64,000 bases of DNA, taken from positions 32,042,645 to 32,106,644 of the forward strand of contig NC_081364.1 of assembly GCF_030684315.1 (NCBI RefSeq), written 5' to 3'. A program made the translations under genes and the position numbers. The stretch comes from Stegostoma tigrinum. Lineage: Eukaryota. Of this stretch, positions 16,086 through 64,000 are shown piece by piece (positions within the stretch are counted from its first letter, which is position 1; each line of letters starts with the position of its first letter). The notes beneath the pieces are model-generated. The model was given only the letters and a program-made list of their open reading frames with translations. It did no database searches and was not told the origin of the DNA.

Positions 16086-16632
16086 AAATTCATTTACAAA
16101 AAGAAACTTTTCCATGCATAGAGACAGAAAAAGAATGCTAAAAAATAGCGTGACAATACGATGGCCTGAAGAGGTTATTTTTGTCCTAGTTTTTCTTTGA
16201 AAAATACAAAAGCTTTAAGGCATAGTTACCAAGATGTCTATTGAAAACTCAAAACAGCTTATTAGATATTGGGTTCTTTTTTAAAGTTGGAACTATAGAA
16301 GCAGCCTGAATGGGTGTGGTAAAACGCACACAGAACCAAGTTTTTAGTTTCATAGTTTTTCAGAAGCTATTGTTGCTGGGTCTGTTGCTGCAGTACACCT
16401 CTCCTCACTATACTCAGTTCTCTCGTTTTTCCTTCTGGGCTGCTGCAGTTACACGAGGTATTCTGTTTTCTGAATTTGCCTTTTGCCAACAGTGTTTATA
16501 CAATGTTACTATACTGGAACAGTTACTGTATAGTAACTGACTAATCTATCATACCGTTAGCAGTAAGTCTATGGAAAAACCTAAGTCAATCGTTTTCTTT
16601 ATTTTGTTGTATCTCAACTAGCCTGTATTTGT

Positions 16633-16853
16633 GATAATAAAGTGTGAAGCTGGATGAACACAGCAGGCCAAGCAGCATCTCAGGAGCACGAAAGCTGACG
16701 TTTCGGGCCTAGACCCTTCATCAGAGAGTAGAGAGGTCTAGGTCCGAAACGTCAGCTTTTGTGCTCCCAAGATGCTGCTTGGCCTGCTGTGTTCATCTAG
16801 CTTCACACCTTATTATCTTGGATTCTCCAGCATCTGCAGTTCCCATTATCTCT
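16633..16853. mobile_element. Palindromic PLE mini-element (two inverted pLTR arms) with TSD
   Basis: Arms about 16633-16728(-) and 16733-16853(+); flanking direct repeats ctagcctgtatttgtg (16618-16633) and ctagactgtatttgtg (16852-16867); intact hammerhead at 16697-16724(-). Confidence 0.92.
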
Positions 16854-17957
16854 AGACTGTATTTGTGTTTTGTTTCAAATCTGGTGGCTTGACTGGTTAT
16901 GTTCCAGATGCAATTCAACACCTTATACTTAAATTTAAAATAAGAAAACATTACGGTCTGAGCTAAATTCTTGACATTTTTTTTTGGGGGGGGGGTTCTG
17001 GTGGTCTTGTCTTTAACAATAGTTTCTAACTGGGCTTAAATCATGAAGAAAATATTTTATCTTCACACTAAAATTTTGTTTAAACACAAGCTCCAACAGT
17101 AAAATAGTATATACGTATGCTTCTAACTGTATCTCTAGGAACATCAGCATGGTTTCATCCAAAAGATTAAAAAAAAGTGACTTATTTTCCCCAACCTAAA
17201 AAAATACCCCCTGAATATTTCACCCTGCAAAACTTAAATCTTTAAAATTAACACTCAGGTACACTGTATTCTGCAGAATTAAAAGTGTTCCACAAACAGT
17301 ATCAAATGATAAAGTTTCAATTATAAATATAGACAATCAAGGTTTTGATCCCAATTTTCACTCCAATTAAATGAGTTTCAAGTGGATTAAAATCACCTTT
17401 TTGAATCCAAAATGGGAGTGGTTACAAAATGGGCCCATCATTTTAACAATTAAAGTTCAACTTCAGAAAACCTTTCTTTGCAAACTCAAAGTCCATCTAT
17501 ATAGTTGTATAATGTTTTCCAACCAATGATTTAAAAAAATGTTTTGGAGCCATTTATCATTATTTAGACTGAAAAGGAGAGTAAACAAACCTTGTTCCAA
17601 GTATACAGAGATTAGTTGCTTTTAATCATCTGTCAAATCTGAAAAATATCCTGCTCCTTATACCTTCAATACTACTTTAAAAAACTTAAACAAAATTTTG
17701 CTTTAATGGAACTGTTAGTTTAACAGAAGTCTGCAGATGTCTTAAAATGTTTACAGTTATTTTGTCAGTTCATGTAACCTATTTAGAAAGGAGAGATAAA
17801 GAATGTCTTCACTTCAATATGGTCTTTATTCCATCAGTAATACGGCTTATAGTCACAAAATGGGCAAAACGCCAAGCAGAGAGACAGGTAACATTCAAGT
17901 ACATAACTAAATGAGACTTTTTTAGGATTTACAATAAGAGTCAACACACAACTTACG

Positions 17958-18086
17958 GAGATAATGGGAACTGCAGATGCTGAAGAATCCAAGATAATAA
18001 AATGGGAAGCTGGATGAACACAGCAGGCCCAGCAGCATCTTAGGAGCACAAAAGCTGACGTTTCGGGCCTAGACCCTTCATCAGAG
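17958..18086 (-). mobile_element. Solo PLE pLTR fragment with tail and intact hammerhead (18057-18084)
   Basis: Reverse complement of about 3538-3667. Confidence 0.92.
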
Positions 18087-18386
18087 CTTCCAGGTGGAAC
18101 TAGCTAACCTGGTTGCAAGGAAACCACTACCCACTTACAGTCTGATCGAGGCTGAATTTTTTTTCATAATCAGCAAGTCACTGGGAATGCAATCTCAAAC
18201 TGATCAACTTTCTTTATTCATGATTCTGACACAATCATCTACATTTTCAAACTACTTGGAAGAAACAAAATTCTACTGGTTTCTTTTTTGTACCATTTCC
18301 ATTTATAGTATAATTGTAAAGAGGATGCATACAGCATAGGAAAGTGTGGAAGACCTATTCAAACAAGACTAACACACAAGGAATTG

Positions 18387-18539
18387 AAGATAATAAAATG
18401 TGAGGCTGGATGAACACAGCAGGCCAAGCAGCATCTCAGGAGCACAAAAGCTGACGTTTCGGGCCTAGACCCTTCATCAGAGAGGGGGATGGGGAGAGGG
18501 AACTGGAATAAATAGGGAGAGAGGGGGAGGCGGACCGAA
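18387..18539 (-). mobile_element. Solo tail-less PLE 3' fragment with TSD and intact hammerhead (18453-18480)
   Basis: Reverse complement of about 3481-3633; direct repeats acacaaggaattg (18374-18386) and acgcaaggaattg (18539-18551). Confidence 0.92.
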
Positions 18540-20229
18540 CGCAAGGAATTGGCTGTGATTTCTGTTTTTAAAAAAGCTTAATTATCTGTCCTAAACGATC
18601 AAGGCACTGGCAAATAAACCCATGGAGGAACTTTATCTGCTTTTCTTTGGAAATGGGTTAGGGGACCGGGAAGCAGGTTCAGTTTTACACTGCCATTTTG
18701 TTTAAAAAGAGACAAGCCATAGTCATGTTCACCAAAGAGAGTTGATACAAGTATACTGAGCTCTGTGTATACTGACATTCACACATTCGCTGGCCGCTAG
18801 GCAAGTGATTATTCCAAAGTTAGAAGGGAGATCTCCTGCTGGCAAATACTTTGAACTCAAGAAATGGAATTGTCATTCCACTTGGAATTTAGCTCAGATT
18901 CTAAAATGTGAAAAGTTTGTTTCACAGCAGCTATAGTTCTAAACAAAGTGCAAGAGCAACTTTTTGTCAGCAGAGGAGGAGGAGGCAAAAAATTTAAGTT
19001 CTAGACCTTACTCCTGCCATTTAATAAGATCATATCTGAACACTGTTGCCTTAACTTCACTTTCCTGCTTTCCCCCCATTCACCAAAATCCTCCACTCAA
19101 ATGCAGATTAAATACTGCCCAGTTCAGCCTTGCATATACACAATGGCAATTTCTCCACGACTCTTGGCCCCTTGAACAACCATGTGAACTTAACCAGATC
19201 CTGTGTTTTTGATCTTACTGGAGGGTTTGATATTAGCAGAGACAGAGAGGGGAATTTATTTTTCTTGAAACAGAATACCAGGGGATCATTTGGCATTTTA
19301 TAGCTACACTTTCCATCTGAAAGATGGCACCTCCAATAGTACAGTATGCCCACAATAATGTGAGCAGTGTCAATTTTAGTGAGTGCCAAAGGCTGTTACA
19401 TCCATGCTAAACATGCATGGAAAATAAAAGGAGACAGGAGTAATTTACTCACTCCAGAACACTGGAAACAATTACTTTGCAAAAGTCTACACTTCATTTA
19501 AAGCCAAGACTAAACAACGGTGTTATCATCCAGCTGGGGACCAATCATATTTTGTCTGGCTTGAAGTCGACAAAGTTTGAGATCCCTGGTACTTACAAAG
19601 AGAATAAAGACAGAAAATTCCACTATTTAGAAGGAACAAAACAAAGTTCACTTTGGAAAGTTAGAGCAGTAAAACAACCTAAGGTAAAAAAACAAGAGGT
19701 AAAAAAGACTGCACTTCAAATGGCTAATGCAGTCAACACCAGGACCCTGAAAAGGTGGGTATATCAGAGCCAAATAAGTCGGGCCCACAGCTCAGGCCTG
19801 GGTCAGGGGTGGGGTCATTGAGTTCAGCACAGCAGCCTGGCCTACGGCCAGGGGCAGCACAGGCTTCTATGTTTTCTGCCCTTGCCTGTGGTCAAAACAT
19901 ATCCTATCAAAATGCTAGCGACACTGCGGGACACCAAATATTATTGCCAAGTTGTCTGCTTTACAAGGGAGTACAATTCATCAGCTTTGATGCTCTGGCT
20001 TTGGAACTCCCTCACAAAGTCCCTCTAAAAAGATGCTGAAGAATGTGGAAATTACCACAGGGAAGTGCTGATGTTCCATACCTTTCATAAATGTGTAAAC
20101 ATGTGGTCAACTCTCCCTTAATAATAATGATTGAAGGCAGCAAGGGACAGTTTGGTTCAATGACAGGAAAGACAGCGAAGCCAATTTTTGCCATACGTCA
20201 ATCATCAAGCAATATTTCAAGGGACTAAC

Positions 20230-21075: not shown

Positions 21076-21291
21076 CATCTTATGATAGGCCCTTCTCTGT
21101 GGTCTGGCAGTTGTGTTGACTGTTGGGTATGAGTTAAGTATGGTATCAATTGAACAGTTACTCAGGATTTATTAATAGTTTAACTTTTCCTGAGTAATTA
21201 TTCACTTAATTTCATTTGAACGCTCCAAATTCTCTCATTAAAATGGAGACTTGCACATGGTTCCAGACATAAGGGGATTGCCCTGTGAAAT

Positions 21292-21509
21292 CAAGACAAC
21301 AAAATGTGAGGCTGGATGAACACAGCAGGCCAAGCAGCATCTCAGGAGCACAAAAGCTGACGCCTCGGGCCTAGACCCTTCACCAGAGAGGGTGAAGGCC
21401 CGAGGCGTCAGCTTTTGTGCTCCTGAGATGCTGCTTGGCCTGCTGTGTTCATCCAGCCTCACATTTTGTTGTCTTGGATTCTCCAGCATCTGCAGTTCCC
21501 ATTATCTCT
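21292..21509. mobile_element. Palindromic PLE mini-element with TSD; hammerhead core mutated in both arms
   Basis: Arms about 21292-21390(-) and 21391-21509(+); direct repeats tgccctgtgaaat (21279-21291) and tgccccgtgaaat (21509-21521). Confidence 0.93.
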
Positions 21510-22289
21510 GCCCCGTGAAATGTTCAACTTCCCATGCAGTTCACTCATAATCTATGACTGGAATTGCACATGTTACCCACTTGCAACACCCATCTATGCT
21601 GGAATAATGACTGGCCCCTGGAAAATCCTGGTCAATGATACAATATATACATGACAAAGTATGTTTGTCTTGGGAAAAGCCCATACCAAAGCTATTTGAA
21701 ATGACAAAATTCTCTCAGAGGCATGTCCATGATCCAGAAGGAACTTCCTTTCTATAATAACCAGAACACCAAAATCAACACCATGCCAATATGTGAAATA
21801 CTTTGGAAGCAAAAAAATCCAGTAGGCTAGAGTTTGATAAATCACAAAATAAGCAAATGCAGGGCTACCATGGGTTTAGAAAAGTTCTTATTACACTCAG
21901 CAACTTCAATTGCTTGTAGCAAGCTAGAATCTAGGTCAATGAAATAACAGAATGGAAAATAGTTACTTCACATTTAATTTTATCTAAAATTAAACCGAAC
22001 ACAAGATATCCCAGGGAGATGTGGAGTATGCAAACAAAATATGGCATTTTGAAGTGACAAAATATTCGTTCCAGACAATTTATGCCCAAGACTTCTAAAA
22101 GGGATAAGGATTACAATTAGAGATTATCGTTCTGAAAACCATGACATTTTTGAATTAGTGAATATCCTGTGGAACTGCTTATCCATAATATGACGATAGC
22201 GTTGTGCATTCTGCTGCCAGTAAAAATGTGTTCAATGCTCAGGTCTGTACTCCATCAGTTAACCTAGTTAAAAATGTATAATGAGCACG

Positions 22290-30384: not shown

Positions 30385-30510
30385 CAGAAGGATCTCAACC
30401 TGTAACGTCAAATTTCCTGCTTCTCTGATGCTGCCTGGCCTGTTGTGTTCCTCCAGCTCCACATTGTGTTGACTCTGACTCAAGCAATTGCAGTTCTTGT
30501 CAACTTCTCT
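30385..30510 (+). mobile_element. Old PLE pLTR fragment (diverged subfamily)
   Basis: gaaggatctcaacctgtaacgtcaaatttcctgcttctctgatgctgcctggcctgttgtgttcctccagc is homologous to the young pLTR. Confidence 0.7.
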
Positions 30511-32809
30511 ATCATTCTCTGCTCGCCTTTTTCTGTATCACCATGTTTACAATCTTGGGTCCGACGAAAACACTTGTATCATAAGCAGAAATTGGAATAT
30601 ATCTGAAAAATATGCATGCTACCACAACTTTTCATCTTGCATTCATCAAACAAACACGGTAAAGTCAAGATTTTCCACAGCACAACATCGTGGGCCGAAG
30701 GGCCTGTACTGTGCTGTACTTTTCTATGTTAAGTAATCACTACTTCTATGCCGCAGGAGAAAATGACGTGCTGATTGGTTGGAAATTTTATTCCAGTTTG
30801 CTATCTCTCATATGAACTCACAACCGAGCCAAAGGCTTTGGACCTGATAAGCGCCTTCATTTTCCCAGGAGGACAGAGATACTTTGGAAGCTTCAGAAAC
30901 ATGCCTCTATTTTCAGCAACATTTAAGCAGAAATAACAGGGCATCAAAAGCTTCAAAACAATATAACAGGATGGAGAACTAGTTGAACGAACTTAAATCA
31001 CCTGCTACCAAAATGATAGCTATTCAGTTCATTTGTTAGAAAATGTTGGTCAAGGCTGCCAAACAAAAAATTGAACTACGGGGCTTAAATATTCTTTCGC
31101 TCTATTGCTTTTATAATCTCTCAGTCATGGAAGCAAATATCTTAGTCCCATCTTGACATCCGCTTTCCTTCACATAGGTGCTTTTCTCCAGTGGAGATCA
31201 ATAACTGATATCTTTGCGATCACTGTGATCACAGAAACCTCAGATGCTCAAATTTCAAAAGCTACCATGATGAAAACTGGCCAAATCGACTTACGAACAG
31301 AAGAATTTTTTTAAAAAATCAGTCTTCATGTGAAAAAGGCGGGTTTGACTGGTAACCAATGGAATTCTAATGTGCCATCAATTTTGCATGTTGGACTACA
31401 TTCCTAGAGCAACGTTGTTAATGATTCACCGCCATGACAGTGAATATTGGCATGAAAATCCAACAAGGGACAGTGTATAACATGTGCCTTGAAGAAATGC
31501 AGTGTGCATTTCAGAATTGATCAATTTTTCCACCACGTCCTACGTCCCTGACAATTTTGTATAACTAAAATTGATATTTGCAGTTTCATGAGATCACCAT
31601 TGTCACTTATGTTTCCATCACTACAAGCCCCTTTGATATTTACATCACCACTTAGGGAGAACACAATATTCTTTTCATAGAATCGAAGATTAAAAGGAGA
31701 AGAGAAATGTGGAATACGTCAAAGCATATTCTAATCCAAGATCAGGTTTACTGCATTGTCCAAGAAAAAAAATTATTGCCAAATGAGCACCATTATTTAG
31801 AAATGAATGTATATTATATAATCTACCTTTCCGGTCAACTTATTCACCTCATTGTTGGCTATCCATCAATTTGAGGATGTTGTCTACTCAGGGTCACAGA
31901 TTCCTGTCATGAGTTTTCATAACATCATAAGATCTACGAGTAGTAATAGGCCATTCAAATAGAGTCAGCTCCAGCATTCAATGAGGTCATGGTTAATCTG
32001 ATAATCCTCAAATCTCAATCATCAATGACATTCAATAAACTAGACACACAAATAACTTAAAATAAATTGAACCTTTTTAGGCGTGAATGGACTGATAGGG
32101 ATCATGGTTTTGTTTTGGCAGTTCTATGAGTGACAGATTCAACCACACATTGTAAGACCAGATACTTAACAAGCCACTGATTAGGCAGTAAACCAACCTT
32201 ACATGTTTCAGAGATTGTGCAAGGATGCCCATGAGAAAATGGAATCCAGTATTGCTCTTTTTTTCTTCTCAGTCATTGTTCTTGCCTCATCATTAAGGCA
32301 TTTGGACTCAAAGCATGATGTATCTTAACAAACAAGTTGTCACCATTTTGAACAATTTGTAGCAAGATGGCCAGAGCAGCCACACTTTGGGGAGAACTTT
32401 AAGACTGTCTTCATTATTTTATTTGTCCTCGTCTGGAGCATTAGAGGATGACAGAAACAGGATAATGTGTGGGGGAGACTTTGCAATCAGCAGGACACAA
32501 CACTCGTTTCCACATGAGTTCTTCCTGAAAGATTGTACAACTGTTTTCAAGAATGAGTGGCATTTGATTCTCTCATTATATCCAACAATGCCTTGACTTA
32601 GATATGGTGGTGGAATTGCTCTAGTGCTAGGCATATAGGCCAGGTGTTGCTTCAGTACAAGAGTCTGGTGTCAACAGGTACTTCTACCCTAGGACATTTT
32701 TTGCCAAATACTCAGTGGCTCTATTGGTACAAGGTGGAGACAGCACTGCTGACATAGTGGTGGATCTCCCTGTCAGAGTCCTTGTGCTGGAGGAAGCTGA
32801 CAAATTCAG

Positions 32810-38600: not shown

Positions 38601-40010
38601 TTTTCCCCAGAGGGTTGCAACCACCAGGTAATTGCTCAGTGGAAATTTAAAACCTTGCCAAAAGTGTAAAGGGAGATCACTTATGTTACATTTACTGTGC
38701 ATGCAGCATTCAGGATGTAGATCACTGTAGATCTGCAGAAGTACTCAGGGGAGCATAATGGGACTGCTTGTGAAGCTGTGACTGGATTATGTACCAACAC
38801 AGAACAATTAAATCTTCAAATATTAATAATAGCCCAAAATGGTGTGCTGCTGCCCTAAGGTTTGGGCATTGGGTGGGTAAAGTCTTACAGAAGGCAAGGG
38901 TGCAGAAACAGAGCTTCACAATGGAGCCAACAATATGGACGCATTTGGGACAAAGTCCAACCAAAGGAATTTAGTTGAAATACAAAGGATATGATCACAG
39001 GTTAGCCATCTTTGAATTATTTTATGTTGTACATTGGGCTTATAACAAATTAAGAAAGCAGGTGAATGCGTGAGTTAACACATTCGTTCATGGACAACTG
39101 AAAACACTGTTGGGGAGAAAAAAGTCCTCTAAAGAGATCATTTTGACCTAAACCAAATACGTACATACAAAAAGCTTGGTTCAATTAGAATATAACAAAA
39201 CATTTGGGAAGGATAAGCTATGAAATACAGGGGAGGAGTAGGAATGAGACCAATTATGAGGAAGAATCATGTGGGTGGGGGTACAAGGAACGAACTATAT
39301 CATACATACTTTCAAGCCAGCTGCAAAAGTGGAGGAAACAAAAAAGGATGAGTTAGAAGTGATTTGAAATTGAGATCTAGTAGACAACTTTCTTGGAGTT
39401 ACTGAAACTTTATGCATAGGACTGTATACACATCAGAAAGGATTAAAGAAATACAAGGATGGAGTGCCAACTAAGAGGAACAGTTTAGGCATTAGCACAG
39501 AACGTTGTACAGATATATTAGCAACATTTAGAAAAAAATTATAAAAGTATATTTCAGGTCACTCCAAAATAATGTGGGGATGTAGGGCATGTGCCAATCT
39601 GCTACAGCCTTGATTGCAACCGAAGGGAATTTCAATCTTTCCAAAATAGACTGGGACTTGCATTGAGGGCAATCTCGTGTGAAAATGGTCACTAAGTAAT
39701 TCTGAAACTGTTCATATAAAGGGAGGGAATAGTGGAAAGTTTTAGGAAGCTGGCAGTAAACAAGGCGAGGCAATATTCAGTCAATATGCTGGCATAGGCA
39801 GCTAATAGTATTGTAAGTTATGTCATAATAGCATTTGCAAAGCTCATAAGAATCAGAGACAATGTTCTATTTGATTAGGCATTACTAATTATGACATGTC
39901 TTTAAAAAACTACACGTTAAGGCTTAAATTTACGAATCTGCAAACGGGGAAACTTCAAGACTTTGAGTATCGCAGATCTGGAGGATAAGAACAAAACACA
40001 GATATTACCT

Positions 40011-42258
40011 GAGATAATGGGAACTGCAGATGCTGAAGAATCCAAGATAACAAAGTGTGAAGCTGGATGAACACAGCAGGCCAAGCAGCATCTCAGGAGC
40101 ACAAAAGCTGCCATTTCGGGCCTAGACCCTTCATCAGAGAACCACACATCAACGAATACCAGTCACGTTTGGACATTGAGCAGTTTTTCCGCCGCCTTCG
40201 CCTCCACGCTTACTTCTTTAACCGGGAGCCTAACCCTCCCTCCACTGACCCCTTCACCTGCTTCCAACACAAGTCCTCCTCCTGGACACCACCCCCAGGC
40301 CTCCTACCCTCCCTCGACCTCTTCATGTCCAACTGCCATCGAGACATTAACTGCCTCAACCTCTTCACCCCTCTCACCCACTCCAACCTCTCCCCCGCAG
40401 AATAGGCAGCCTCCGCTCCCACCCCACCCTCACCATCAAACCTGCAGACAAGGGAGGTGCAGTGGTAGTATGGCGCACTGACCTCTACATCTCTGAGACC
40501 CAACGCCAACTCTCCGACACCACCTCTAACCGCCCCCTTCATCATGACCCCACCCCCGAGCACCAAACCATAATCTCCAGTACCATCCATGACCTCATCA
40601 CCTCAGGGGACCTCCCACTCACAGCCTCCAACCGTATTGTTCCCCAACCCCACACGGCCTGTTTCTATTTCCCTCCCAAAATCCACAAACCTGCCTGCCC
40701 TGGTCGACCCATTGTCTCAGCCTGCTCCTGCCCCACCAAACTCATCTCCACCTATCTCACTCCATTTTCTCCACTTTGGTCCAGGAACTCCCTACCTACG
40801 TCGGTGACACCACCCACGCCCTCCAGAACTTCCAATTCCCGACCCCAACACCTCATTTTCACCATGGACGTCAAGTTCACCTGGGCCATCTCCAACACAT
40901 CCGTCACCTTCCTGGACACCTCAGTCTCCATCTCAGGCAACCAGCTAGAAACGGATGTCCATTTCAAGCCCACTGACTCCCACAGATACCTAGAATACAC
41001 CTCCTCCCACCCACCCTCCTGCAAAAATTCCATCCCCTATTCCCAATTCCTCCGCCTCCACCGCATCTGCTCCCAGAATGAGGCATTCCACTCCCGCACA
41101 TCCCAATGTCCATGTTCTTCAAGGACTGCAACATTCCCCCCGCAGTGTCGAGAACGCCCTTCAGCACGTCTCCCGCATTTCCCGCAACACATCCCTCACA
41201 CCCCGTCCCCACCATAACCGCCCCAAGAGGATCCCCCTGTTCTCACACAGCACCCCACTAACCTCCAGATACAACGCATCATCCTCCGACACTTCCGCCA
41301 TCTACAATCCGACCCCACCACCCAAGACATTTTTCCACCTCCACCCTTGACTGCCTTCCGGAGACACCACTCTCTCCGTGACTCCCTTGTTCGCTCCACA
41401 CTGCCCTCCAACCCCACCACACCCTGCAACTTCCCCTGCATCCGCAGGAAGCACTATACTTGCCACCACACCTCCTCGCTCACCCCCATCCCAGACCCCA
41501 AGATGACTTTCCATATTAAGCAGATGTTCACCTGGACATCTGCCAGTGTGGTATATTGTATCCATTGTACCCGGTGTGGCTTCCTCTACATTGGGGAAAC
41601 CAAGTGGAGGCTTGGGGACCACTTTGCAGAACACCTCTGCTCTGTTCGCAATAAACAACTGCACCTCCCAGTCGGGAACCATTTTAACTCCCCCTCCCAT
41701 TCTTTAGATGACATGTCCATCATAGACCTCCTGCAGTGCCACAATGATGCCACCCGAAGGTTGCAGGAACAGCAACTCATATTCCGCTTGGGAACCCTGC
41801 AGCCCAAATGGTATCAATGTGGACTTCACAAGCTTCGAAGTCTCCCCTTCCCCCACCGCATCCCAAAACCAGCCCAGCTTGTCCCCTCCCCCCACTGCAT
41901 CCCAAAACTAGCCCAGCCTGTCTCCGCCTCCCTAACCTGTTCTTCCTCTCACCCATTCCTTCCTCCCACCTCAAGCCGCACCTCCATTTCCTACCTACTA
42001 ACCTCATCCCACCTCCTTGACCTGTCTGTCTTCCCTGGACTGACCTATCCCCTCCCTACCTCCTACACCTATACCCTCCTCTCCACCTATCTTCTTTTCT
42101 CTCCCTCTTCGGTCCGCCTCCCCCTTTCTCCCTATTTATTCCAGAACCCTCTCCCCATCCCCCTCTCTGATGAAGGGTCTAGGCCCGAAACGTCAGCTTT
42201 TGTGCTCCTGAGATGCTGCTTGGCCTGCTGTGTTCATCCAGCTTCACACCTTGTTATC
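40011..42258 (+). mobile_element. PLE copy B: inverted pLTR (40011-40140, minus) plus forward body with an internal RT deletion, flanked by a TSD
   Basis: PADKGGAVVV and PKIHK...GRPIVS motifs; GIY-YIG; direct repeats cacagatattacctga at 39997-40012 and 42258-42273; intact hammerhead at 42167-42194. Confidence 0.95.
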
Positions 42259-42651
42259 ACAGATATTACCTGATGGAATTTTAGGAAGATATTAACATTG
42301 ACCAACACTTGTGCCGGATTTTAAGGATCCCCATCAATCTTCTCAGCATGTTCCCTGTTTCTAGAAAAAGTCTCAGATTATTCTGAACCATTAAAAGTTG
42401 CTCATACAATCAATGACACAGGTGAAACATCCTCTGTCCCTGCCCCAACAATCCTATCCATATCACTCCCAAAAGGAAGACTTTCCAAAGTGTCCAAGTT
42501 TGAGGCCAACACCAAATTGCACATTGTGAGCAATGGCGCCAACTTGAGATAATCCGTGTGATCTGGAAAAGCAAGATCAATGATTAAAGAGATGGCAAGT
42601 GAACTGTGAGAAGTGCATATATTTAGATTTGGAAGTGGTTACTAAAATTAT

Positions 42652-44705: not shown

Positions 44706-45183
44706 CCTCACATCTTTCCATCTGTTCAGAAAGTTAGACGTTGATTCCTTTATTTTGAATTAAGATAGCTTCAAAAGCAAAATGATTTCTCACCACTGTC
44801 ATAAATATGATTTCTCCTCATTTAAACCCAAGTTTAAGAGACGTTTAATTTTGTGGAAGTTAAAGAAATAAAATGGCTCACATCCAACGGAAAATGCTGT
44901 GCAATAGTTTCATTAGGCAGCTGAGCCATTTTTCAAGTGCATTCATGGAGTAGTAATGCCCCATCCCTGAGCCAGAAGTCCCAGGTTAACGTCCCAACTG
45001 ATCAGAGTTGTGAGAAAACACACCTGACCTATTTTTCAGATCATCCTGCTCAGAGGTGTTATTACATACCTCTGGAACATGTGGGGCCTGAAGCCGGGTC
45101 TCTCAGTCCACAGGTCGGGACACCACTGCTGCGACATAATGCGACCCAACAAAATACATTCAAAACAGGTTGATTAAAAATAT

Positions 45184-45335
45184 CAAGGCGCAGAGCTGGA
45201 TGAACACAGCAGGCCAAGCAGCATCAGGGGAGCAGGAAGGCTGACATTTTGGGTGTAGAACATTCTTCAGAAGAAATTTCTGCCCCGCACCTTGTTATCT
45301 CAGATTCTCCAGCATCTGCAGTTCCTGCTATCTCT
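45184..45335. mobile_element. Asymmetric palindromic PLE mini-element (CTGAAGA subfamily) with degenerate TSD
   Basis: Long tail-less minus arm plus a short tailed plus arm; flanks tgattaaaaatatc (45171-45184) and tggttaaaaaatatc (45335-45349). Confidence 0.8.
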
Positions 45336-45529
45336 GGTTAAAAAATATCTACAGGTGACGCATTAAAAAAAAACTAAGTCAGTCTTGTTTAATTCCCAAC
45401 CTGTTGAGTTCTCTCATTTCAGAGTGGCAGGAGCGCCTAATGGACTTCTTTGCTCTAATCACCACCTAATGGCCCCTATTAGAAGTCCATGCAGATGAAT
45501 ATCAAGATGATAACAGGACTTTAGCTTCA

Positions 45530-46535: not shown

Positions 46536-46560
46536 TCAGTAAAGCAGGAGATACTTGGTT

Positions 46561-49500
46561 AGAGATAATGGAAACTGCAGATGCTGGAGAATCTGAGATA
46601 CAAAGTGTGGAGCTGGATGAACACAGCAGGCCAAGCAGCATCTTAGGAGCACAAAAGCTGACGTTTCGGCCCTAGACCCTTCATCAGAGAGGGGGATGGG
46701 GAGAGGGTTCTGAAATAAATAGCGGGGGGTGGATCAAAGATGGATAGAGGAGAAGATACGTGGAGTGGAGACAGGCAAGTTAAAGGGGTGTGGATGGAGC
46801 CTGTAGAGGTGAGTGTAGGTGGGGAAGTAGGGAGGAGATAGGTCAGTCTAGGGAGGATGGACAGGTCAAGGGGGCGGGATGAGGTTTGTAGGTAGGAAAT
46901 GGAGGTGTGGCTTGAGGTGGGGTGGGGGGGAAGTGTACAGGTGAGAGGAAGATCAGGTTAGGCAGGCGGGGACAAGCTGGGCTGGTTTTGAATTGCAGTG
47001 GGGGAAGGGGAGATTTTGAAGCTGGTGAAGTCCACATTGATACCACTGGGCCGCAGGGTTCCCAAGCAGAATATGAGTTGCTGTTCCTGCAACCTACGGG
47101 TGGCATCATTATGGCACTGCAGGAGGCCCAGGATGAACACGTCATCTAAGGAATGGGAGGGGGAGTTAAATGGTTCACGACTGGGAGGTGCAGTTGTTTA
47201 TTGTGAACCGAGTGTAGGTGTTCTGCAAAGCAGTCCCCAAGTCTCCACTTGGTTTCCCCAATGTAGAGGAGGCCACACCGGGTACAGCGGATGAGTATAC
47301 CACATTGGCAGATGTGCAGGTGAACATCTGCTTGATGTGGAAAGTCTTGTTGGGGCCTGGGATAGGGATGAGGGAGGAGATGTGGGGGCAAGTGTAGCAC
47401 TTCCTGCGGTTGCAGGGGAAGGTGCCAGGTGTGGTGGGGTTGGAGGGGAGTGTGGAGCGGACAAGGGGGTCGCGGAGAGAGTGGTCTCTCCGGAAAGCAG
47501 ATGAGGGTGGGGATGGAAAAATGTCTTTGATAGTGGGGTCGGATTGTAGATGATGGAAGTGTCGGAGGATGATGTGTTGCATCCAGAGGTTGATGGGGTG
47601 GTATGCGTGGACAAGGGGAATTCTCTTTTGGTGGTTATTGCAGGGACAGGGTGTGAGGGACGAGTTGCAGGAAACACCGATGAAGGCGTTCTCGACCACT
47701 TATGGGGGTGGGGGGGTGGGTGGAGTTGTGGTCCTTGAAGTACAAGGATATCTGAGATGTATGGGAGTAGAATGCCTCAACCTAGAAGCAGATGCGGCAG
47801 AGGCGAGGAAATTGGGAATAGGGAATGGAATTTTTGCAGGAAGTGGGTAGGAGGTGGTGTATTCTAGGTATCTGTGAAAGTCGGTGGGCTTGAAATGGAT
47901 ATCGGTTTTTGGGTGGTTGCCTGAGATGGAGACAGTGTCATCCAGGAAGGTGAGAGATGTGTTGGAGATGGTCCAGGTGAAGTTGAGGTTGGAGTGGAAG
48001 GGTGTTGGTGAAGTGGATGAACTGTTCGAGCTCCTCTTGGGAGTACAAGGTGGCGCCCATACATTCATCAATGTAACGGAGAAAGTGGTGGGGTTCAAGG
48101 CCAGTGTAGGTACGGAAGAGGGGCTGTTCCACGTAACCTACAAAGAGGCAGGCATACTTTGGGGTCATGCAGGTACCCATGGCCGCCCCGCCTTTGTCTG
48201 TAGGAAGTGGGAGGAATTGAAAGAGAAGTTGTCGAGGACGAGGACAAATTCAGCTAGGTGGATGAGGTTGTCGTTGGAGGGGGAGGACTGGTGCGGGACA
48301 GCACGAATCGGTGGGCCTTTAGGCCATCTGCATGGGGAATGCAGGTGTATAGGGACTGGACGTCCATAATAAAAATGAGGTGTTGGGGACCAGGGAATTG
48401 GAAGTTCTGGAGGATTTGGAGGGCATGGGTGTTGTCACAGACGAAGGTAGGGAGTTCCTGGACCAAGGGAGCCGAGGGAGCAGAGGGCTTCACGTTCTGC
48501 GGGGGAGAGGTTGGAGTGGAGTCCAGGAGCACCCCAGGCCTCCTACCCTCCCTCGACCTCTTCATCTCCAACTGCTGTCGAGACATCACTCGCCTCAATG
48601 TCTCCACCCCCTCACCCACTCCAACATCGCCGCAGAACGCGCAGTCCTCTGCTCCCATCCCAACCTCACCATGAAACCCGCAGACAAGGGAGGGGCAGTG
48701 GTGGTATGGTGTAATGACCTCTACATTACTAAGGCCAGACAATAACTCTTCGACACCACCTCCAACCGCTCCCTGGGTCATGACCCCACCCCCGAGCACC
48801 AAACCATCATCTCCCAACCATCCACAACCTCATCACCTCAGGGGACCTCCCACCCACAGCCTCCAACATCATTGTTTCCCAACCCTGCACCACCCGTTTC
48901 TATCTCCTTCCCAAAATCCACAAACCCGCCTGCCCTGGTTGACCCATTGTCTCCACCTGTTCCTGTCCCACCGAACCCATCTCCACCTATCCGGACTCCA
49001 TTTTCTCCCCCTTGGTCTAGGAACTCCCTGCTTACATCTGTGACATCACCCACCCCCTTCACCTCCTCCAGAACTTCCAATTCCCTGGTCACCAACACCT
49101 CATTTTCACCAATGGTCATCCAATCCCTATACACCTGCATTCGACATGCAGATGGTCTAAAGGCCCTCCGCTTCTTGCTGTCCTGCAGACCCGACCAGTC
49201 CCCCTCCATCGACACCCTCATCCACCTAGCCGAACACGTCCTCACCCTCGACAACTTCTCTTTCAATTCCTCCCACTTCCTGCAGACAAAGGGAGCGGCC
49301 ATGGGTACCCGCATGGGCCCAAAGTATGCCTGCCTCTTTGTAGGTTGCATGGAACAGTCCCTCTTCCACACTTACACTGGCCCTAAATCCCACCGCTTCC
49401 TCCGTTACATTGACAGCTGTATCGTCGCCGCCACGAGCTCCCAAGAGGAGCTCGAACAGTTCATCCACTTCACCAACGCCTTCCACCCCAACCTCACCTG

Positions 49501-50862
49501 GACCATCTCCAACACATCCCTCACCTTCCTGGACATCACTGTCTCCATCGCAGACAACCACCTCAAAACCGAAATCCATTTCAAGTACACCGACTCCCAC
49601 AGCTATCCAGAATATACCTCCTCCCACCCACCTTCCTGCAATAATTCCATCCCCTATTCCCAATTCCTTTGCCTCTTCCGCATCTGCTCCCAGGATGAGG
49701 CATTCTACTCCCATATATCTCAGATGTCCTCGTTCTTCAAGGACCGCAACTTCCCCCCATAGTGGCTGAGAACGCCCTCGACAGTGTCTCCCACATTTCC
49801 TGCAACTCATCCCTCACACTCTGTCCCCGCAATAACCAAAACAGAATCCCCCTCGTCCTCACATACCACCCCACCAACCTCCGGATACAACGCATCATCC
49901 TCCATCACTTACACTGTCAACAATCTGACCCCACTACCAAAGACATTTTTCCATCCCCACCCTCATCTGCTTTCTGGAGAGACCACTCTCTCCATGCCTC
50001 CCTTGTCCGCTCCGCACTCCCTTCCATCCCACCACACCCGGCACTTTCCCCTCCAACTGCAGGAAGTGCTGCATTTGCCACCACACCTCACTCCTCACCC
50101 CTCACCCACATCCCAGGCCCCAAGAAGACTTTCCACATCAAGCAGATGATCACCTGGACATCTGCCAATGTGGTATACTGCATCCGCTGTATCCAGTGTG
50201 GCTCCCTCTACATTGGGGAAACCAAGGGAGGCTTGAGGACTACTTTGCAGTACACCTACGCTCGGTTCGCAATAAACAACTGCACCTCCCAGGCGCGAAC
50301 CATTTTAACTTCCCCTCCCATTCCTTAGACGACATGTCCATCCTGGGCCTCCTGCAGTGCCACAATGATGTCACCCAAAGGTTGCAGGAACAGCAACTCA
50401 GTCGACTTGGGAACCCTGCAGCCCAATGGTATCAATGTGGATTTCACAAGCTTCAAAATCTCCCCTCCCCCCACTGCATCCCAAAACCAGCCCAGCACGT
50501 CCCCACCTCCCTAACCTGTTCTTCCTCTCATCTATCCTCCCACTCCCACGTCAAGCCACACCTCCATTTCCTACCTACTAACCTCATCCCGCCCCCTTAA
50601 CTTGTCCATCCTCTCCGGACTGACCTATCCCCTCCTTACCTCCCCACTACAGGCTCCATCCACACCCCTTTAACTTGCCTGTCTCTCCACCTATCTTCTC
50701 CTCTATCCATCTTCGATCCACCTCTCCCTCTCAATTTATTTCAGAACCCTCTACCCATCCCCCTTTTCTGATGAAGGGTCTAGGCCCAAAACGTCAGCTT
50801 TTGTGCTCCTAAGATGCTGCTTGGCCTGCTGTGTTCATCCAGCTTCACACTTTGTTATCTCG
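46561..50862. mobile_element. PLE copy C: 4.3-kb head-to-head inverted pair (minus arm 46561 to about 48520, plus arm about 48531-50862), decayed
   Basis: RT and GIY-YIG remnants on both strands (e.g. QTKGAAMGTRMGPKYACLFV at about 49280); degenerate TSD gatacttggttag (46550-46562) / gatgcttggatag (50863-50875). Confidence 0.93.
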
Positions 50863-51758
50863 GATGCTTGGATAGGATTGTTAACAATCAGCAAGCCTCT
50901 GCCATTATCGAGAATGCTTTAGCAAAACATAATAATGGCCTTACACATGTCGAGTTAAGATAATGGATTCCTTTCTCCATCCCAGGTTTAAGCTCCAAGC
51001 TTGAATGACATTTAAACTCATTCAACCAAAGTGCATCATTAGTGAAATTTAGGGTCATTTGGCTAGTTACAGTGTTTGAAAAAGATACAGTTATCTAACT
51101 CTAAATATGGGAGAATAAGGAGGAGAAACATTGTTCAGCACGCTATCCTGTGCCATGTGTTCACACCTCCAGCTCCACAATCATTGAGAGAAAGTAATCT
51201 GACACAAGGAATTCAGGTGGTCAGATCATCCCATTGACCGAGGAAATGCTTACAGGCTAAAATAGGATGGCTGTAGCTGAAAAGTTACACGTTTTTTGCC
51301 TATATTAAGCCAAGTAGTTAATTGAGAAAGCAAGGTATTTAAACTACTTTATGCCAATGAACAAATACTTTCTGTTAAACAATCTCTAAGGATAAAACAC
51401 AGATTTCACTAAGCACTAGTAAAATTTATATACTTTGACTGAGAGCAATGAAATCATCACTAAGGAGAAAAATAAATTTTGCTCGAATTTTCTATGATGT
51501 TGCAAACTGGTAGCTGTGGGTGGGGGTGAGGTTGGAGGTTGGAGGTTAGGGGTTAATCAGCATTCAGCCGCAACACAGGATCATCTTAAGACTCATAATT
51601 GTAACCGGTACTAAAGCACATCTAATGTTACTCCATTTCCTGCTCAAACCACAGAATACTCACGTACATTAATGTTTTATAAATACTTCTTTCACAGATG
51701 GTAATCATTTTGTCAGTTTGTTTACATTTTTGACACCCTGATTTATTGGCACTCTGCT

Positions 51759-52575: not shown

Positions 52576-52706
52576 CCTCTGATGAAGGGTCTAGGCCCGA
52601 AACGGCAGCTTTTGTGCTCCTGAGATGCTGCTTGGCCTGCTGTGTTCATCCAGCTTCACACTTTATTATCTTGGATTCTCCAGCATCTGCAGTTCCCATT
52701 ATCACT
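52576..52706 (+). mobile_element. Solo PLE pLTR fragment with tail; cleavage triplet mutated GTC->GGC
   Basis: Matches 3537-3668. Confidence 0.92.
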
Positions 52707-57997: not shown

Positions 57998-58135
57998 TCC
58001 TACAGGAGGCAGAACAATCTCGAAAGTCAGTCAGTGTAGTCAGTCAGTGTAGTGCATGTGAGAGACTGAAGGTCTGTTATTTAGGGAATTCATGGGTTCA
58101 TGGTGAATTTCGAGTCACAACAGGTTTATTTTACA

Positions 58136-58333
58136 GACATAGTAGGAACTGCCGATGCTGGAGAATCTGAGATAACAAGGTGTAGAGCTGGATGAGCACA
58201 GCAGGCCAAGGAGCATCAGAGGAGCAGGAAAGCTGAAGTTTTGGGTCTGGGCCCTTCTTCAGAAATTCTTTTTCCTACTCCTCTGATGCTGCTTAGCCTG
58301 CTGTGTTCATCCAGCTCTACACCTTGTTATCTC
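58136..58333. mobile_element. Palindromic PLE mini-element (CTGAAGA subfamily) with perfect TSD
   Basis: Tailed minus arm plus tail-less plus arm; caggtttattttacag at 58121-58136 and 58333-58348. Confidence 0.9.
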
Positions 58334-59949
58334 AGGTTTATTTTACAGTTTGTTTTAGATGCCTTGTGTAACAGCTGAAGAAATAAAACCATCTCAAATG
58401 CAGAAATTTCCTGGAAGGAAAGATTAAAAGCATATTAGACGTTTCAAGAAGCTTTAGTCTGAGTTTTGAGTGTTTGCAAGGATAAAAAACAGCGTGAATT
58501 TGAATTTTTTTAGATGAAATTTCTCTAATCTCTCCATGTCTAGTGTAATATAGTCTGTTTCTTTTTCCTCTTGTCTAATAATGGTTGTCTGTCTTGTTTT
58601 AAAATTACACTGGCAACTCTTGTGAATCTGTTCAATAACTAAGAAAACCAAAATGTTAGCAAGCTAGGTTTGACTCTGAACCAGTCTTGCCCAGTGTTAA
58701 GGGCAAAGGACAGGTTGACAAGAGGAGATTTACTCGTAGAGAGCTCAAATACAAATTAGTGTCTGTTTTTCACTGGCCAGGGGCTTTACCTTTGTTGTGT
58801 GGAAACAGAGGTACCAATTAATCATACATGTTCCTCCCCTGACACTGCTATACCACTTCTACACAGATACCGATAAGTGTTTACCATTATCTTCACAAAA
58901 AAAAGGACTGGTTAACTTTGGCCAGTAGGGCAACTCAGTTAAATTTCCTCAAGCCTTCTGCTATTTTGCATACTGAGCCTATAAGGATTTGGGAATGGTA
59001 TTGGGTTGTCTAATCATGTTAAATTTGATAGTATAGCAGATTCAAAAATTGAGACAGCCACTGCTAAAATTGTGAACTTTAAAGATGTAAGATGAAAGAC
59101 TGTTTTTGACACAATAAACGGCACAAGTATTTGCAGCTTTCAGTTACAATTTTACCATACTTGTACCATTTGTTTGAATTTTTGTAAATATATTATATTG
59201 CATGGTAATTCTGCATCCACATTATTTTCCTAGGCCCTGGTTGCAAGAACAAACCCCCAGAAGGTTAGTGAAACCTGCTTCTTCCAGATCTGAAAGTGGC
59301 ACTTCAGTAATTTACAGTTTTCTAACAGGGACAGGTTGTTGAGTAAACACTTGTTACGATAATATTTGCTACGCTCATTACAATGTGACAAAGCAATTCT
59401 GAGTTAAGGGTCGCAGCTTTTTATTCGCAAACCCTTCCATAGATGTGCACATAATAACTCTTCATTATTTCAAAAAGATAAAAGATCCTGATGAATTTTC
59501 TCATGATCATGATGTCATAACAAAATTGTTGCTTCTATTAAATCAGAAAATTTGATCCGCATTAAATTTCTTCTTGGGCTCAGAACTAATAAAACACTGA
59601 ACAACAACTACATAACCAGCTGTGATGCAGTTATACAACTACATTAAAAACTCTAATGAACATTTATTCACTAACTTCATAACGCAATAATTCAACCTTA
59701 AAATTAGACATAGATCACCTCACAAGCAAATAATAATTCATGCTAAAATACAGAAAGCACTTTCCTGAACACTTTATAAAGAATAATTTCCATCAATGCA
59801 TGAACGTGTTCTTAATCCAGGAGCAGCAAACTAGTCTGTGAGCCATGGAAACCATCTTGGTAGCCATGGCCTGTCGCATTCACACCTTTCATCAGGCAGC
59901 TGAACATTGAGAGGTAGTGAGAACATGAGTAAGTAGATGATGCCCCACT

Positions 59950-60060
59950 GGGCCCTCTTGTGGCACAGTGGTAGTATCCCCACACTTGCAGTGGAGGCCC
60001 GATCTCAAGTCCCACCTGGTCCAGTGGTGTGTAATAACATCTTTACAAAAGTTGATTAGA
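59950..60060 (+). mobile_element. tRNA-derived SINE fragment
   Basis: tggcacagtggtag A-box-like; similar to 43148-43245. Confidence 0.5.
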
Positions 60061-60687: not shown

Positions 60688-60895
60688 GACAGGTAGCTCA
60701 GTTGATTGGATGGCTGGTTGCAATGTGGAGTGACACCAACTAATAGTGGGGCTTCAATTCCAGTACCAGCTGAGGACTCTCTTTTCAACCTCTCCCCTCA
60801 ACTGAGACATGGTGGCCCTAACGTAAAACGATGTTCAGTGTCTTTTCTCTAAAGAGAGAGCAGCTCTATGCAGTAGGGCTGTAGCAACTTAACTG
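60688..60895 (+). mobile_element. tRNA-derived SINE, degenerate
   Basis: ggtagctcagttg A-box and gcttcaattcc B-box-like motifs. Confidence 0.5.
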
Positions 60896-61626
60896 TTACT
60901 AACAGACAGAATCTTAGCCCCTAGGGAAAATGCTGACCTGTCAAGTGCACGAGTGGCACACAGTTGAGCTTTTTGAAAAGAAGAGATACAGTTATCTCAC
61001 CAGCTCTCCAGTTGATAGCAAGACGCCCAATGCCTCCATAAGATTCTGCTCTCCATTGTTATTATAGATAGTTTTCTGCAAAGAAAAAGACGCTGATTGC
61101 TAGGAAAAAAAAAAACTATCACTAACTACTGGTCTCAGGTCACCAATCCTCTCAGATTGCTTGGGAGTCCTCAGTCTTCTGGACGCTGCTGCTAGCAAGC
61201 CTGACAAAATTAATTTCAGGCTTTTAAAAACTGGAATTTTTGAGCTTTCTAAAAAAATAACTTTTAACAGTATTAGAGATAATGGGAACTGCAGATGCTG
61301 GAGATTCCAAGACAACAAAATGTGAGGCTGGATGAACACAGCAGGCCAAGCAGCATCTCAGGAGCACAAAAGCTGACGTTTCGGGCCTAGACCCTTCATC
61401 AGAGAGGGGGATGGGGGGAGGGAACTGGAATAAATAGGGAGAGAGGGGGAGGCGGACCGAAGATGGAGAGTAAAGAAGAAAGGTGGAGAGGGTGTAGGTG
61501 GGGAGGTAGGGAGGGGATAGGTCAGTCCAGGGAAGACGGACAGGTCAAGGAGGTGGGATGAGGTTAGTAGGTAGCTGGGGGTGCGGCTTGGGGTGGGAGG
61601 AAGGGATGGGTGAGAGGAAGAACCGG

Positions 61627-63117
61627 TTAGGGAGGCAGAGACAGGTTGGACTGGTTTTGGGATGCAGTGGGTGGGGGGGGGGAAGAGCTGGGCTGGTCGT
61701 GTGGTGCAGTGGGGGGAGGGGATGAACTGGGCTGGTTTAGGGATGCAGTGGGGGAAGGGGAGATTTTGAAACTGGTGAAGTCCACATTGATACCATATGG
61801 CTGCAGGGTTCCCAGGCGGAATATGAGTTGCTGTTCCTGCAACCTTCGGGTGGCATCATTGTGGCAGTGCAGGAGGCCCATGATGGACATGTCATCAAGA
61901 GAATGGGAGGGGGAGTGGAAATGGTTTGCGACTGGGAGGTGCAGTTGTTTGTTGCGAACTGAGCGGAGGTGTTCTGCAAAGCGGTCCCCAAGCCTCCGCT
62001 TGGTTTCCCCAATGTAGAGGAAGCCGCACCGGGTACAGTGGATGCAGTATACCACATTGGCAGATGTGCAGGTGAACCTCTGCTTAATGTGGAATGTCAT
62101 CTTGGGGCCTGGGATGGGGGTGAGGGAGGAGGTGTGGGGACAAGTGTAGCATTTCCTGCGGTTGCAGGGGAAGGTGCCGGGTGTGGTGGGGTTGGAGGGC
62201 AGTGTGGAGCGAACAAGGGAGTCACGGAGAGATTGGTCTCTCCAGAAAGCAGACAGGGGAGGGGATGGAAAAATGTCTTGGGTGGTGGGGTCGGATTGTA
62301 AATGGCGGAAGTGTCGGAGGATAATGCGTTGTATCCGGAGGTTGGTAGGGTGGTGTGTGAGAACGAGGGGGATCCTGTTGGGGCGGTTGTGGCGGGGGCG
62401 GGGTGTGAGGGATGTGTCGCGGGAAATGCGGGAGACGCGGTCAAGGGCGTTCTCAATCACCGTGGGGGGAAAGTTGCGGTCCTTAAAGAACTTGGACATC
62501 TGGGATGTGCGGGAGTGGAATGTCTTATCGTGGGAGCAGATGCGGCGGAGGCGGAGGAATTGGGAATAGGGGATGGAATTTTTGCAGGAGGGTGGGTGGG
62601 AGGAGGTGTATTCTAGGTAGCTGTGGGAGTCGGTGGGCTTGAAATGGACATCAGTTACAAGCTGGTTGCCTGAGATGGAGACTGAGAGGTCCAGGAAGGT
62701 GAGGGATGTGCTGGAGATGGCCCAGGTGAACTGAAGGTTGGGGTGGAAGGTGTTGGTGAAGTGGTTGAACTGTTCGAGCTCCTCTGGGGAGCAAGAGGCG
62801 GCGCCGATACAGTCATCAATGTACCGGAGGAAGAGGTGGGGTTTGGGGCCTGTGTAGGTGCGGAAGATGGACTGTTCCACGTAACCTACAAAGAGGCAGG
62901 CATAGCTGGGGCCCATGCGGGTGCCCATGGCCACCCCCTTAGTCTGTAGGAAGTGGGAGGAGTCAAAAGAGAAGTTGTTGAGTGTGAGGACGAGTTCCGC
63001 TTGGCGGATGAGAGTGTCGGTGGAGGGGGCCTGGTCGGGCCTGCGGGACAGGAAGAAGCGGAGGGCCTTGAGGCCATCTCCATGCGGAATGCAGGTGTAC
63101 AGGGACTGGACGTCCAT
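61627..63117 (-). CDS. PLE polyprotein, 5'-truncated but uninterrupted 496 aa: RT motifs, thumb, Cys linker, GIY-YIG endonuclease
   Basis: DVQSLYTCIPH (motif A), QTKGVAMGTRMGPSYA (B'), RYIDD (C), CNRRKCYTC, VVYCIHCTRCGFLYIGET...EH...ANHF...EQQLI. Confidence 0.9.
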   Translation of the reverse strand: MDVQSLYTCIPHGDGLKALRFFLSRRPDQAPSTDTLIRQAELVLTLNNFSFDSSHFLQTKGVAMGTRMGPSYACLFVGYVEQSIFRTYTGPKPHLFLRYIDDCIGAASCSPEELEQFNHFTNTFHPNLQFTWAISSTSLTFLDLSVSISGNQLVTDVHFKPTDSHSYLEYTSSHPPSCKNSIPYSQFLRLRRICSHDKTFHSRTSQMSKFFKDRNFPPTVIENALDRVSRISRDTSLTPRPRHNRPNRIPLVLTHHPTNLRIQRIILRHFRHLQSDPTTQDIFPSPPLSAFWRDQSLRDSLVRSTLPSNPTTPGTFPCNRRKCYTCPHTSSLTPIPGPKMTFHIKQRFTCTSANVVYCIHCTRCGFLYIGETKRRLGDRFAEHLRSVRNKQLHLPVANHFHSPSHSLDDMSIMGLLHCHNDATRRLQEQQLIFRLGTLQPYGINVDFTSFKISPSPTASLNQPSSSPPPTAPHDQPSSSPPPPTASQNQSNLSLPP

Positions 63118-63173
63118 GGTGAATATGAGGTGTTGGGGGCCAGGGAATTGGGCCCCAACACCTCATATTCACC

Positions 63174-63569
63174 ATGGACGTCCAGTCCCTGTACACCTGC
63201 ATTCCGCATGGAGATGGCCTCAAGGCCCTCCGCTTCTTCCTGTCCCGCAGGCCCGACCAGGCCCCCTCCACCGACACTCTCATCCGCCCAGCGGAACTCG
63301 TCCTCACACTCAACAACTTCTCTTTTGACTCCTCCCACTTCCTACAGACTAAGGGGGTGGCCATGGGCACCCGCATGGGCCCCAGCTATGCCTGCCTCTT
63401 TGTAGGTTACGTGGAACAGTCCATCTTCTGCACCTACACAGGCCCCAAACCCCACCTCTTCCTCCGGTACATTGATGACTGTATCGGCGCCGCCTCTTGC
63501 TCCCCAGAGGAGCTCGAACAGTTCATCCACTTCACCAACACCTTCCACCCCAACCTTCAGTTCACATAG
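63174..63569 (+). pseudogene. PLE RT fragment of the right arm with a premature stop (TGG->TAG)
   Basis: Identical start to ORF 61627-63117; ttcacatagg versus ttcacctggg in the other arm. Confidence 0.88.
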
Positions 63570-64000
63570 GCCATCTCCAACACATCCCTCACCTTCCTGG
63601 ACCTCTCAGTCTCCAACTCAGGCAACCAGCTTGTAACTGATGTCCATTTCAAGCCCACCGACTCCCACAGCTACCTAGAATACACCTCCTCCCACCCACC
63701 CTCCTGCAAAAATTCCATCCCCTATTCCCAATTCCTCCGCCTCCGCCGCATCTGCTCCCACGATAAGACATTCCACTCCCGCACATCCCAGATGTCCAAG
63801 TTCTTTAAGGACCGCAACTTTCCCCCCACAGTGATTGAGAACGCCCTTGACCGCGTCTCCCGCATTTCCCGCGACACATCCCTCACACCCGTCCCCGCCA
63901 CAACCGCCCCAAGAGGATCCCCCTCGTTCTCACACACCACCCTACCAACCTCCGGATACAACGCATCATCCTCCGACACTTCCGCCATTTACAATCCGAC

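Follow-up and report, generated by a model that had tools for sequence, protein, structure and literature searches.

A window of 64,000 nucleotides from Stegostoma tigrinum (contig NC_081364.1, positions 32,042,645 to 32,106,644) is densely populated by a family which, judged by its sequence motifs, is a Neptune-type endonuclease-positive (EN+) Penelope-like element (PLE) with a reverse transcriptase (RT), a CX4CxxC linker and a GIY-YIG endonuclease. Many of its copies consist of two inverted arms, and we lean, by a small degree only, towards the view that these two-arm copies are one-step insertions made by coupled twin priming on one RNA. The insertions mostly show a known PLE layout in a new host family, and the arrangement itself is not new. 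Published work is cited by accession.

Loci were found by self-BLAST of the window and by mapping to the left arm of the copy at 61.3k, which served as reference; arm positions are distances upstream of the element 3′ end. One repeat family makes up 12 loci and 12,274 of the 64,000 bases (∼19% of the window), a density of about one arm per 3 kb. At eight loci an antisense left arm is combined with a sense right arm, and the remaining four are single arms. An earlier sequence-only reading had named seven of the pairs. All seven were recovered at the positions given for them, each with element 3′ ends at both outer ends as had been described; its list was not complete, missing the four single arms and the inverted pair at 1982-3668. 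When 20 arms were placed at random, adjacent outward-facing pairs occurred 0.037 times on average and at most twice in 20,000 trials, compared with eight observed, which confirms for this window that inverted pairs are commoner than chance adjacency. The loci, with target site duplications (TSDs) and pseudo-long terminal repeats (pLTRs), are:

16620..16866, two-arm insertion 16.6k; TSD 16620-16632 and 16854-16866; tailless antisense arm 16633-16728 (–132 to –37), ∼6-nt filler, tailed sense arm 16735-16853 (–119 to –1)
21280..21521, two-arm insertion 21.3k; TSD 21280-21291 and 21510-21521; tailless arm 21292-21392 (∼–134 to –34), tailed arm 21391-21509 (∼–126 to –1, with a 7-nt gap); small-loop centre with 2-nt microhomology
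39998..42271, two-arm insertion 40k; perfect 13-bp TSD; tailed antisense arm 40011-40140 (130 bp, –131 to –2), tailless sense arm 40141-42258 (2.1 kb with an internal deletion, ∼–2.5 kb to –37)
45172..45348, two-arm insertion 45.2k of an older subfamily; degenerate 12-13 bp TSD; tailless arm 45184-45271 (–129 to ∼–42), tailed arm ∼45282-45335 (∼–55 to –1)
46550..50873, long two-arm insertion 46.6k; TSD 46550-46560 and 50863-50873; tailed arm 46561-48529 (∼–2.4 kb to –1), tailless arm 48530-50862 (∼–2.4 kb to –33); arm 5′ ends 11 nt apart
58122..58347, two-arm insertion 58.1k of an older subfamily; perfect 14-bp TSD; tailed left arm 58136-58263 (–129 to –1), tailless right arm ∼58271-58333 (∼–97 to –36)
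61275..64000, young long two-arm insertion 61.3k, interrupted by the window end; tailed arm 61275-63150 (∼–1875 to –1), partner from 63151 (from ∼–1868); small-loop centre
1982..3668, further inverted pair; antisense –1354 to –1706 (1982-2335) joined to sense –1379 to –1 (2331-3668)
18374..18551 including flanks, minus strand, single-arm tailless copy (18387-18539) with its own 13-bp TSD
17958..18086, minus strand, single-arm tailed pLTR with 5′ end at ∼–130; TSD search negative
52577..52706, plus strand, single-arm tailed pLTR with 5′ end at –130; TSD search negative
30387..30496, plus strand, old and diverged single-arm pLTR (76% identity); TSD search negative

The flanking direct repeats reported earlier were found around all six complete two-arm insertions, anchored at the arm ends and with scores of 7-16; among ∼3,000 random flank pairs, a score of 7 was reached by 0.23% and a score of 12 by none. 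This supports the proposal that the insertions are one-step events. The unambiguous TSD measures 13 bp at 16.6k, 12 bp at 21.3k (with a mismatch), 13 bp at 40k, 12 bp at 45.2k, 11 bp at 46.6k and 14 bp at 58.1k. The length of 13-16 bp given previously thus holds only if one to three bases common to the element ends are counted, whereas the unambiguous core is 11-14 bp.

The two arms of an insertion do not end alike. The element's terminal 130 bp form its pLTR, and a TTATCT-type motif precedes both start sites of reverse transcription and bounds a 35-nt tail. This tail is present on exactly one arm in six of six complete insertions, with a probability of at most 0.016 if the two nicks chose their start sites independently. 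As the sequence-only reading had noted, neither arm contains the other at 16.6k, 21.3k and 40k, and we add 45.2k; at 58.1k the tailless right arm falls within the tailed left one. The arms of 45.2k overlap by just ∼15 nt, so that two primers are needed there and the copy can hardly be called a hairpin. The non-contained arms, above all those of 45.2k, together with extension of both strands in vitro (PMC11167929), bear out that part of the earlier proposal which has both nicks prime reverse transcription.

The word “independently” in that proposal fares worse. Fully independent cDNAs, each made from its own RNA or begun at a freely chosen start site and later end-joined, would account for the four of six insertions in which neither arm contains the other, for the unique centres and for the very unequal arms of 40k, and in vitro both strands are extended with a start site that does not depend on the strand (PMC11167929). 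Such independence is contradicted by the tail asymmetry, by matched 5′ ends in both long pairs and by variants common to the two arms of 21.3k, and we regard it as improbable.

The matched ends are those of 61.3k and 46.6k. The arm 5′ ends of 61.3k lie ∼10 nt apart at ∼–1875, and in 46.6k a 9-mer at 48521-48529 is antisense to sequence 11 nt past the start of the right arm, at ∼–2.4 kb. Under independent exponential truncation (scale 0.5-2 kb), matching of both long pairs has a probability of 4e-5 to 6e-4, an estimate that is crude and post hoc. An assembly artefact was considered for these long pairs and rejected because of arm divergence, which is 1.4% at 61.3k (12 of 850 sites) and 11.6-13.8% at 46.6k, where a TSD is present as well. 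The arms of 21.3k are identical across ∼80 bp and both have G at two adjacent positions, variants that 13 other arms all lack. In 46.6k and 58.1k each arm has its partner as nearest neighbour, and vice versa; in 21.3k the partner is nearest or ties for that place. Both arms of 21.3k also have in common three changes from A to G, read on the sense strand, within the hammerhead core (21360-21410), which could stem from editing of the template RNA (ADAR), a source variant or later conversion.

The main rival to coupled twin priming, which sequence alone cannot separate from it, is fold-back and capture: the 3′ end of a cDNA would snap back and copy its own strand, making the inner second arm a DNA copy, and a short cDNA from the other nick would anneal and supply the outer end, with or without the tail. 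We consider it unlikely, though less so than any other alternative. It accounts for the identity and private common variants of the 21.3k arms and for the nested arm of 58.1k, and junction palindromes have been interpreted as self-priming (PMC3846280). Loops of 5-9 nt are present at 21.3k, 46.6k and 61.3k, and those of 21.3k and 61.3k sit on 2-nt GG/CC stems. It fits poorly with 45.2k, where the arms hardly overlap, and with 40k, where the “loop” would measure 2.4 kb. When the nascent ends were folded, none of three cases yielded the expected terminal hairpin as such, and their stability was not out of the ordinary (z –0.56 to 0.79). Furthermore, two blocks of the 46.6k right arm, ∼90 and ∼350 nt near the centre (48470-48530), are missing from the left arm, as would follow from skipping by the RT or from deletions relieving a long hairpin.

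Several observations weigh against coupled twin priming. Matched ends and small loops are predicted by fold-back too. In 16.6k, 40k and 45.2k the nearest neighbour is an arm other than the partner, although the differences involved are small in number and may have arisen after insertion. Further extension in the 5′ direction, usually expected of the tailless arm, is seen in only four of six insertions (16.6k, 21.3k, 40k and 45.2k, not 58.1k and 46.6k). Since the TSD of 21.3k has a mismatch, the identity of its arms may reflect later homogenisation, and the arm 5′ ends of 40k lie 2.4 kb apart. A single-arm copy with a TSD at 18.4k indicates that two primings are not obligatory, and the sample comprises six to seven insertions from a single window.

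In coupled twin priming, as we picture it, the target would receive an endonuclease cut staggered by ∼13 nt, and a single RNA would be reverse-transcribed from both nicks, beginning at two sites that lie 35 nt from each other. One subunit would start at the tailless site and go ahead, while the other would start on the still free tail and displace the first cDNA over a variable distance, from almost none in 45.2k up to a common end in 46.6k and 61.3k. Finally, 2-nt microhomology or filler would link the cDNAs at their 3′ ends. If both cDNAs halt at or before a hotspot at –130, mini-elements of 150-220 bp would result. The displacement step assumes that the RNA survives copying, as the PLE RT is not known to have RNase H. 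A more specific version, in which a dimeric RT-endonuclease primes both nicks on one RNA at the two motif copies with one subunit per site, is put forward tentatively, as something rather less probable than not.

The centres differ in all seven two-arm insertions, including the four mini-elements, contrary to what MITE-like amplification with identical centres would give. Within the window the elements therefore do not amplify as a unit and are not miniature inverted-repeat transposable elements (MITEs). That the mini-elements are true MITEs moved by a DNA transposase has very little probability in our estimation. They do resemble MITEs in their size of 150-220 bp, TSD, long internal inverted repeat (three of four) and high copy number; against this stand their four different centres, the 35-nt tail that offsets the termini and a TSD length varying from 12 to 14 bp without common sequence. 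True terminal inverted repeats are missing, as one end has 33-41 nt of extra tail in four of four. There is no fixed superfamily-type TSD, and the cognate protein is an RT-endonuclease rather than a transposase. Copies of 2-4 kb with RT-endonuclease sequence obey identical end rules. The mini-elements would thus be dead-on-arrival truncated retro-insertions, not a separately mobile family.

For a family-wide view, contigs of four of the 19 runs listed (two of organism A, two of organism B) were mapped onto window positions 1400-4300. No recurring head-to-head centre was seen among 15 of 1,054 joints listed with capped counts, apart from 3539-3638 (5, 5, 1 and 2 contigs); this is a weak test, since joints between overlapping arms may go unscored. 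The joints also bear on a templated origin, in which the inverted structure would be present before integration, either in an RNA (read-through or antisense) of an existing inverted copy or in a cDNA intermediate of hairpin or circular form, would be resolved at the tail by the endonuclease and would enter the target as a unit. Antisense self-priming (PMC3846280) and endonuclease resolution at the tail (PMC8557442) have both been proposed, and opposite-strand tailless-to-tailed joints, the type of junction to be expected in such an intermediate, occur in organism A in 27+29+12 contigs of run X1 and 26+36+15 of run X3, again among the 15 of 1,054 joints listed. These joints are few compared with the 369,183 contigs in X1, do not occur in either run of organism B and may represent nested insertions in an existing pLTR. 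With seven of seven centres different and both ends located at a pair of RT start sites of the type known in vitro, we think it doubtful that such a template was the source, about as doubtful as fully independent cDNAs. The organism A joints (3631-3670) read as tail-to-tail and could be either nested insertions or the trace of an intermediate. In the copy at 2.0k, the bases that directly follow the tail are complementary to the tailless end, a match that could aid priming there.

In the window, arm 5′ ends cluster at –129 to –134 in seven arms. Loose ends with unrelated flanks map to position 3539 (∼–130) in each of the four runs, in 663, 664, 141 and 165 contigs among the 24 of 7,577 rows listed. 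The –130 boundary is thus a hotspot throughout the family, and copies with a single arm are common. The claim that two-arm insertion is the majority pathway is weakened accordingly: it holds for the window, with seven of 12 loci (95% confidence interval 28-85%), or eight of 12 if 1982-3668 is included, but the abundance of single-arm copies in the run contigs restricts it to the window. Summed depth in organism A climbs toward the 3′ end and is twofold at the pLTR core bin (16.5M versus 7.9M; 25.0M versus 11.5M), although summed depth is not a copy number. The tail bin, scaled for 38 of 97 positions, reaches about half of the core bin in organism A, not B, and was not used as evidence. The hotspot adjoins the 5′ edge of the hammerhead, directly after a pyrimidine tract, with the predicted cleavage site elsewhere (∼–100), and may represent the RNA 5′ end or an RT stop.

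The pLTR with its hammerhead is best represented by the reference copy:

61275..61405, minus strand, reference pLTR; minimal hammerhead core near the 5′ edge and 35-nt tail

By pattern search, a minimal core (helix II plus minimal helix III) is found in seven of 18 arms, one with a broken helix II, and is intact in just one of four mini-elements. The description of the mini-elements as ribozyme-bearing therefore applies in part: the core is there in a minority of arms, mostly as a relic motif. None of 12 matches in an Rfam scan was a hammerhead, folding of the pLTR RNA was no better than that of shuffled sequences (z 0.33), and an exact 31-nt pLTR pattern had no match in viral, genome and metagenome contigs. 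Minimal hammerheads of such kind require a dimer (PMC4209133) or protein (PMC11167929) for self-cleavage.

The pair at 1982-3668 was considered as a case of L1-style twin priming and dropped as support. A TSD was looked for and not found there. The left-flank contig departs from the reference past 1972 for 322-323 nt in all four runs, and the window's junction at 1982 was unseen in them. The junction may therefore have arisen in assembly, or through a later deletion that removed flank together with the greater part of a left arm.

The coding part of the family is represented in the window by one open frame:

61627..63162, minus strand, 511-aa open frame; C-terminal part of the PLE protein with RT, CX4CxxC linker and GIY-YIG

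Pfam models RVT_1 (E 1.6e-4) and GIY-YIG (E 1.5e-3) match this frame, both missing the curated cut-offs. A CxxC lies between the two Tyr motifs of GIY-YIG with two His downstream, the CCHH motif, and such a motif with two Cys within the GIY-YIG core defines EN+ PLEs (PMC8557442). We found 858 homologs at E<=1e-20, the closest from zebra shark (95% identity) and whale shark (88%), followed by bamboo shark and rays, which points to a carpet shark as the most likely host; the full-length homolog P0006 has RT and then GIY-YIG in identical order. Of 120 homologs examined, 100 have a GIY motif that can be scored, and 95 of these carry a CX4CxxC linker. Frame, linker and homologs together confirm that this is a Penelope-like family. 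A CX2-5CxxC linker upstream of GIY-YIG marks Neptune and Nematis and is absent in Penelope/Poseidon (PMC8557442), so the linker points to Neptune or Nematis; the placement in Neptune rests on the linker together with the vertebrate host. The window lacks a full-length copy, the kind on which a partial direct tandem would form a 5′ pLTR, its longest arm reaching only ∼residue 103 of an 803-aa homolog, and a search of solved structures gave no match. Past the endonuclease region, a 39-40 bp unit (41843-41922 and 61671-61761) differs in copy number among subfamilies, and a short GIY-YIG-region fragment at 35220-35345 belongs to a more distant PLE (52% amino-acid identity). Unrelated to the PLE family are two inverted pairs of older dispersed repeats (977-1364 with 13964-14348 and 31701-31931 with 36283-36506) and a stop-free 55-codon stretch on the plus strand (32631-32795) that resembles a host exon and gave no match in a Pfam search.

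The inverted pLTR arrangement, which the sequence-only reading had called established for PLEs, is indeed documented. In Penelope of Adineta vaga, an inverted pLTR completes an insert with a 9- or 10-bp TSD, a 31-bp tail is optional on one pLTR, junctions contain palindromes, and head-to-head is the most frequent form (PMC3846280); inverted terminal repeats are likewise the most frequent form of D. virilis Penelope (PMC2377424). A purified PLE protein, predicted to be a dimer, cuts and extends both strands from two sites bounding the tail (PMC11167929). Layout and prevalence are therefore already in print, which removes the novelty of a majority pathway, and priming at both nicks has a precedent. 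Like these EN+ PLEs and the scheme in PMC8557442, the shark family shows frequent head-to-head pLTRs with a TSD round the whole unit, a 30-40 bp tail at one end, small junction palindromes and a pLTR hammerhead. It differs from the A. vaga examples in its TSD of 11-14 bp rather than 8-10 bp, and from EN+ PLE cases in its large share of the window, its many ORF-less 150-220 bp products, its sharp –130 hotspot and the absence of direct-tandem pLTRs among the 12 loci.

The experimental precedent is Poseidon PAc of Anolis carolinensis, also a GIY-YIG/RT protein, which prefers AT-rich targets, has two RT start sites bounding the tail on either strand and does not require hammerhead cleavage; the available excerpts of the source report no two-ended product, inverted insertion or start-site coupling (PMC11167929). 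Unlike the shark family, PAc belongs to the Poseidon clade without the CX2-5CxxC linker.

LINE-1 (L1) twin priming offers another comparison: two nicks prime one RNA, leaving an inverted 5′ part within one TSD and a microhomology join. There, the second priming occurs at whatever internal position chance provides, with little overlap between the parts, whereas the second site of the shark PLE is fixed 35 nt from the first, a spacing that makes the arms overlap into palindromes.

The mini-elements are small, non-coding, inverted-repeat-bearing, TSD-flanked and abundant like MITEs (PMC8969392), but differ in lacking true terminal inverted repeats and in their variable TSD, unique centres and retrotransposon origin. 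As short non-autonomous hammerhead-bearing derivatives of a PLE pLTR, they also resemble non-LTR retrozymes, reported in one chondrichthyan (bioRxiv 10.64898/2026.07.22.740005). Retrozymes form direct tandem arrays, while the shark copies are single or inverted; none of seven Tandem Repeats Finder (TRF) rows is a pLTR array. A search of openly accessible literature listed no paper about either the shark family or PLE insertion by coupled twin priming.

Rfam miRNA models match 58.1k and 63.1k below thresholds, and there is a risk that the short products are annotated as MITEs or miRNA hairpins. The origin of inverted and tandem PLE structures and of the one-sided tail is stated as unresolved in the literature (PMC8557442, PMC11167929). 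What this window adds are countable end rules, namely the tail on one arm, the matched ends and the –130 hotspot, which make that open mechanism testable. If the dimer version of coupled twin priming is true, the tail asymmetry, the mirror-image arms and the matched truncation points would all follow from one step, and the dense shark family would be a natural library for reading this open step of the PLE cycle.

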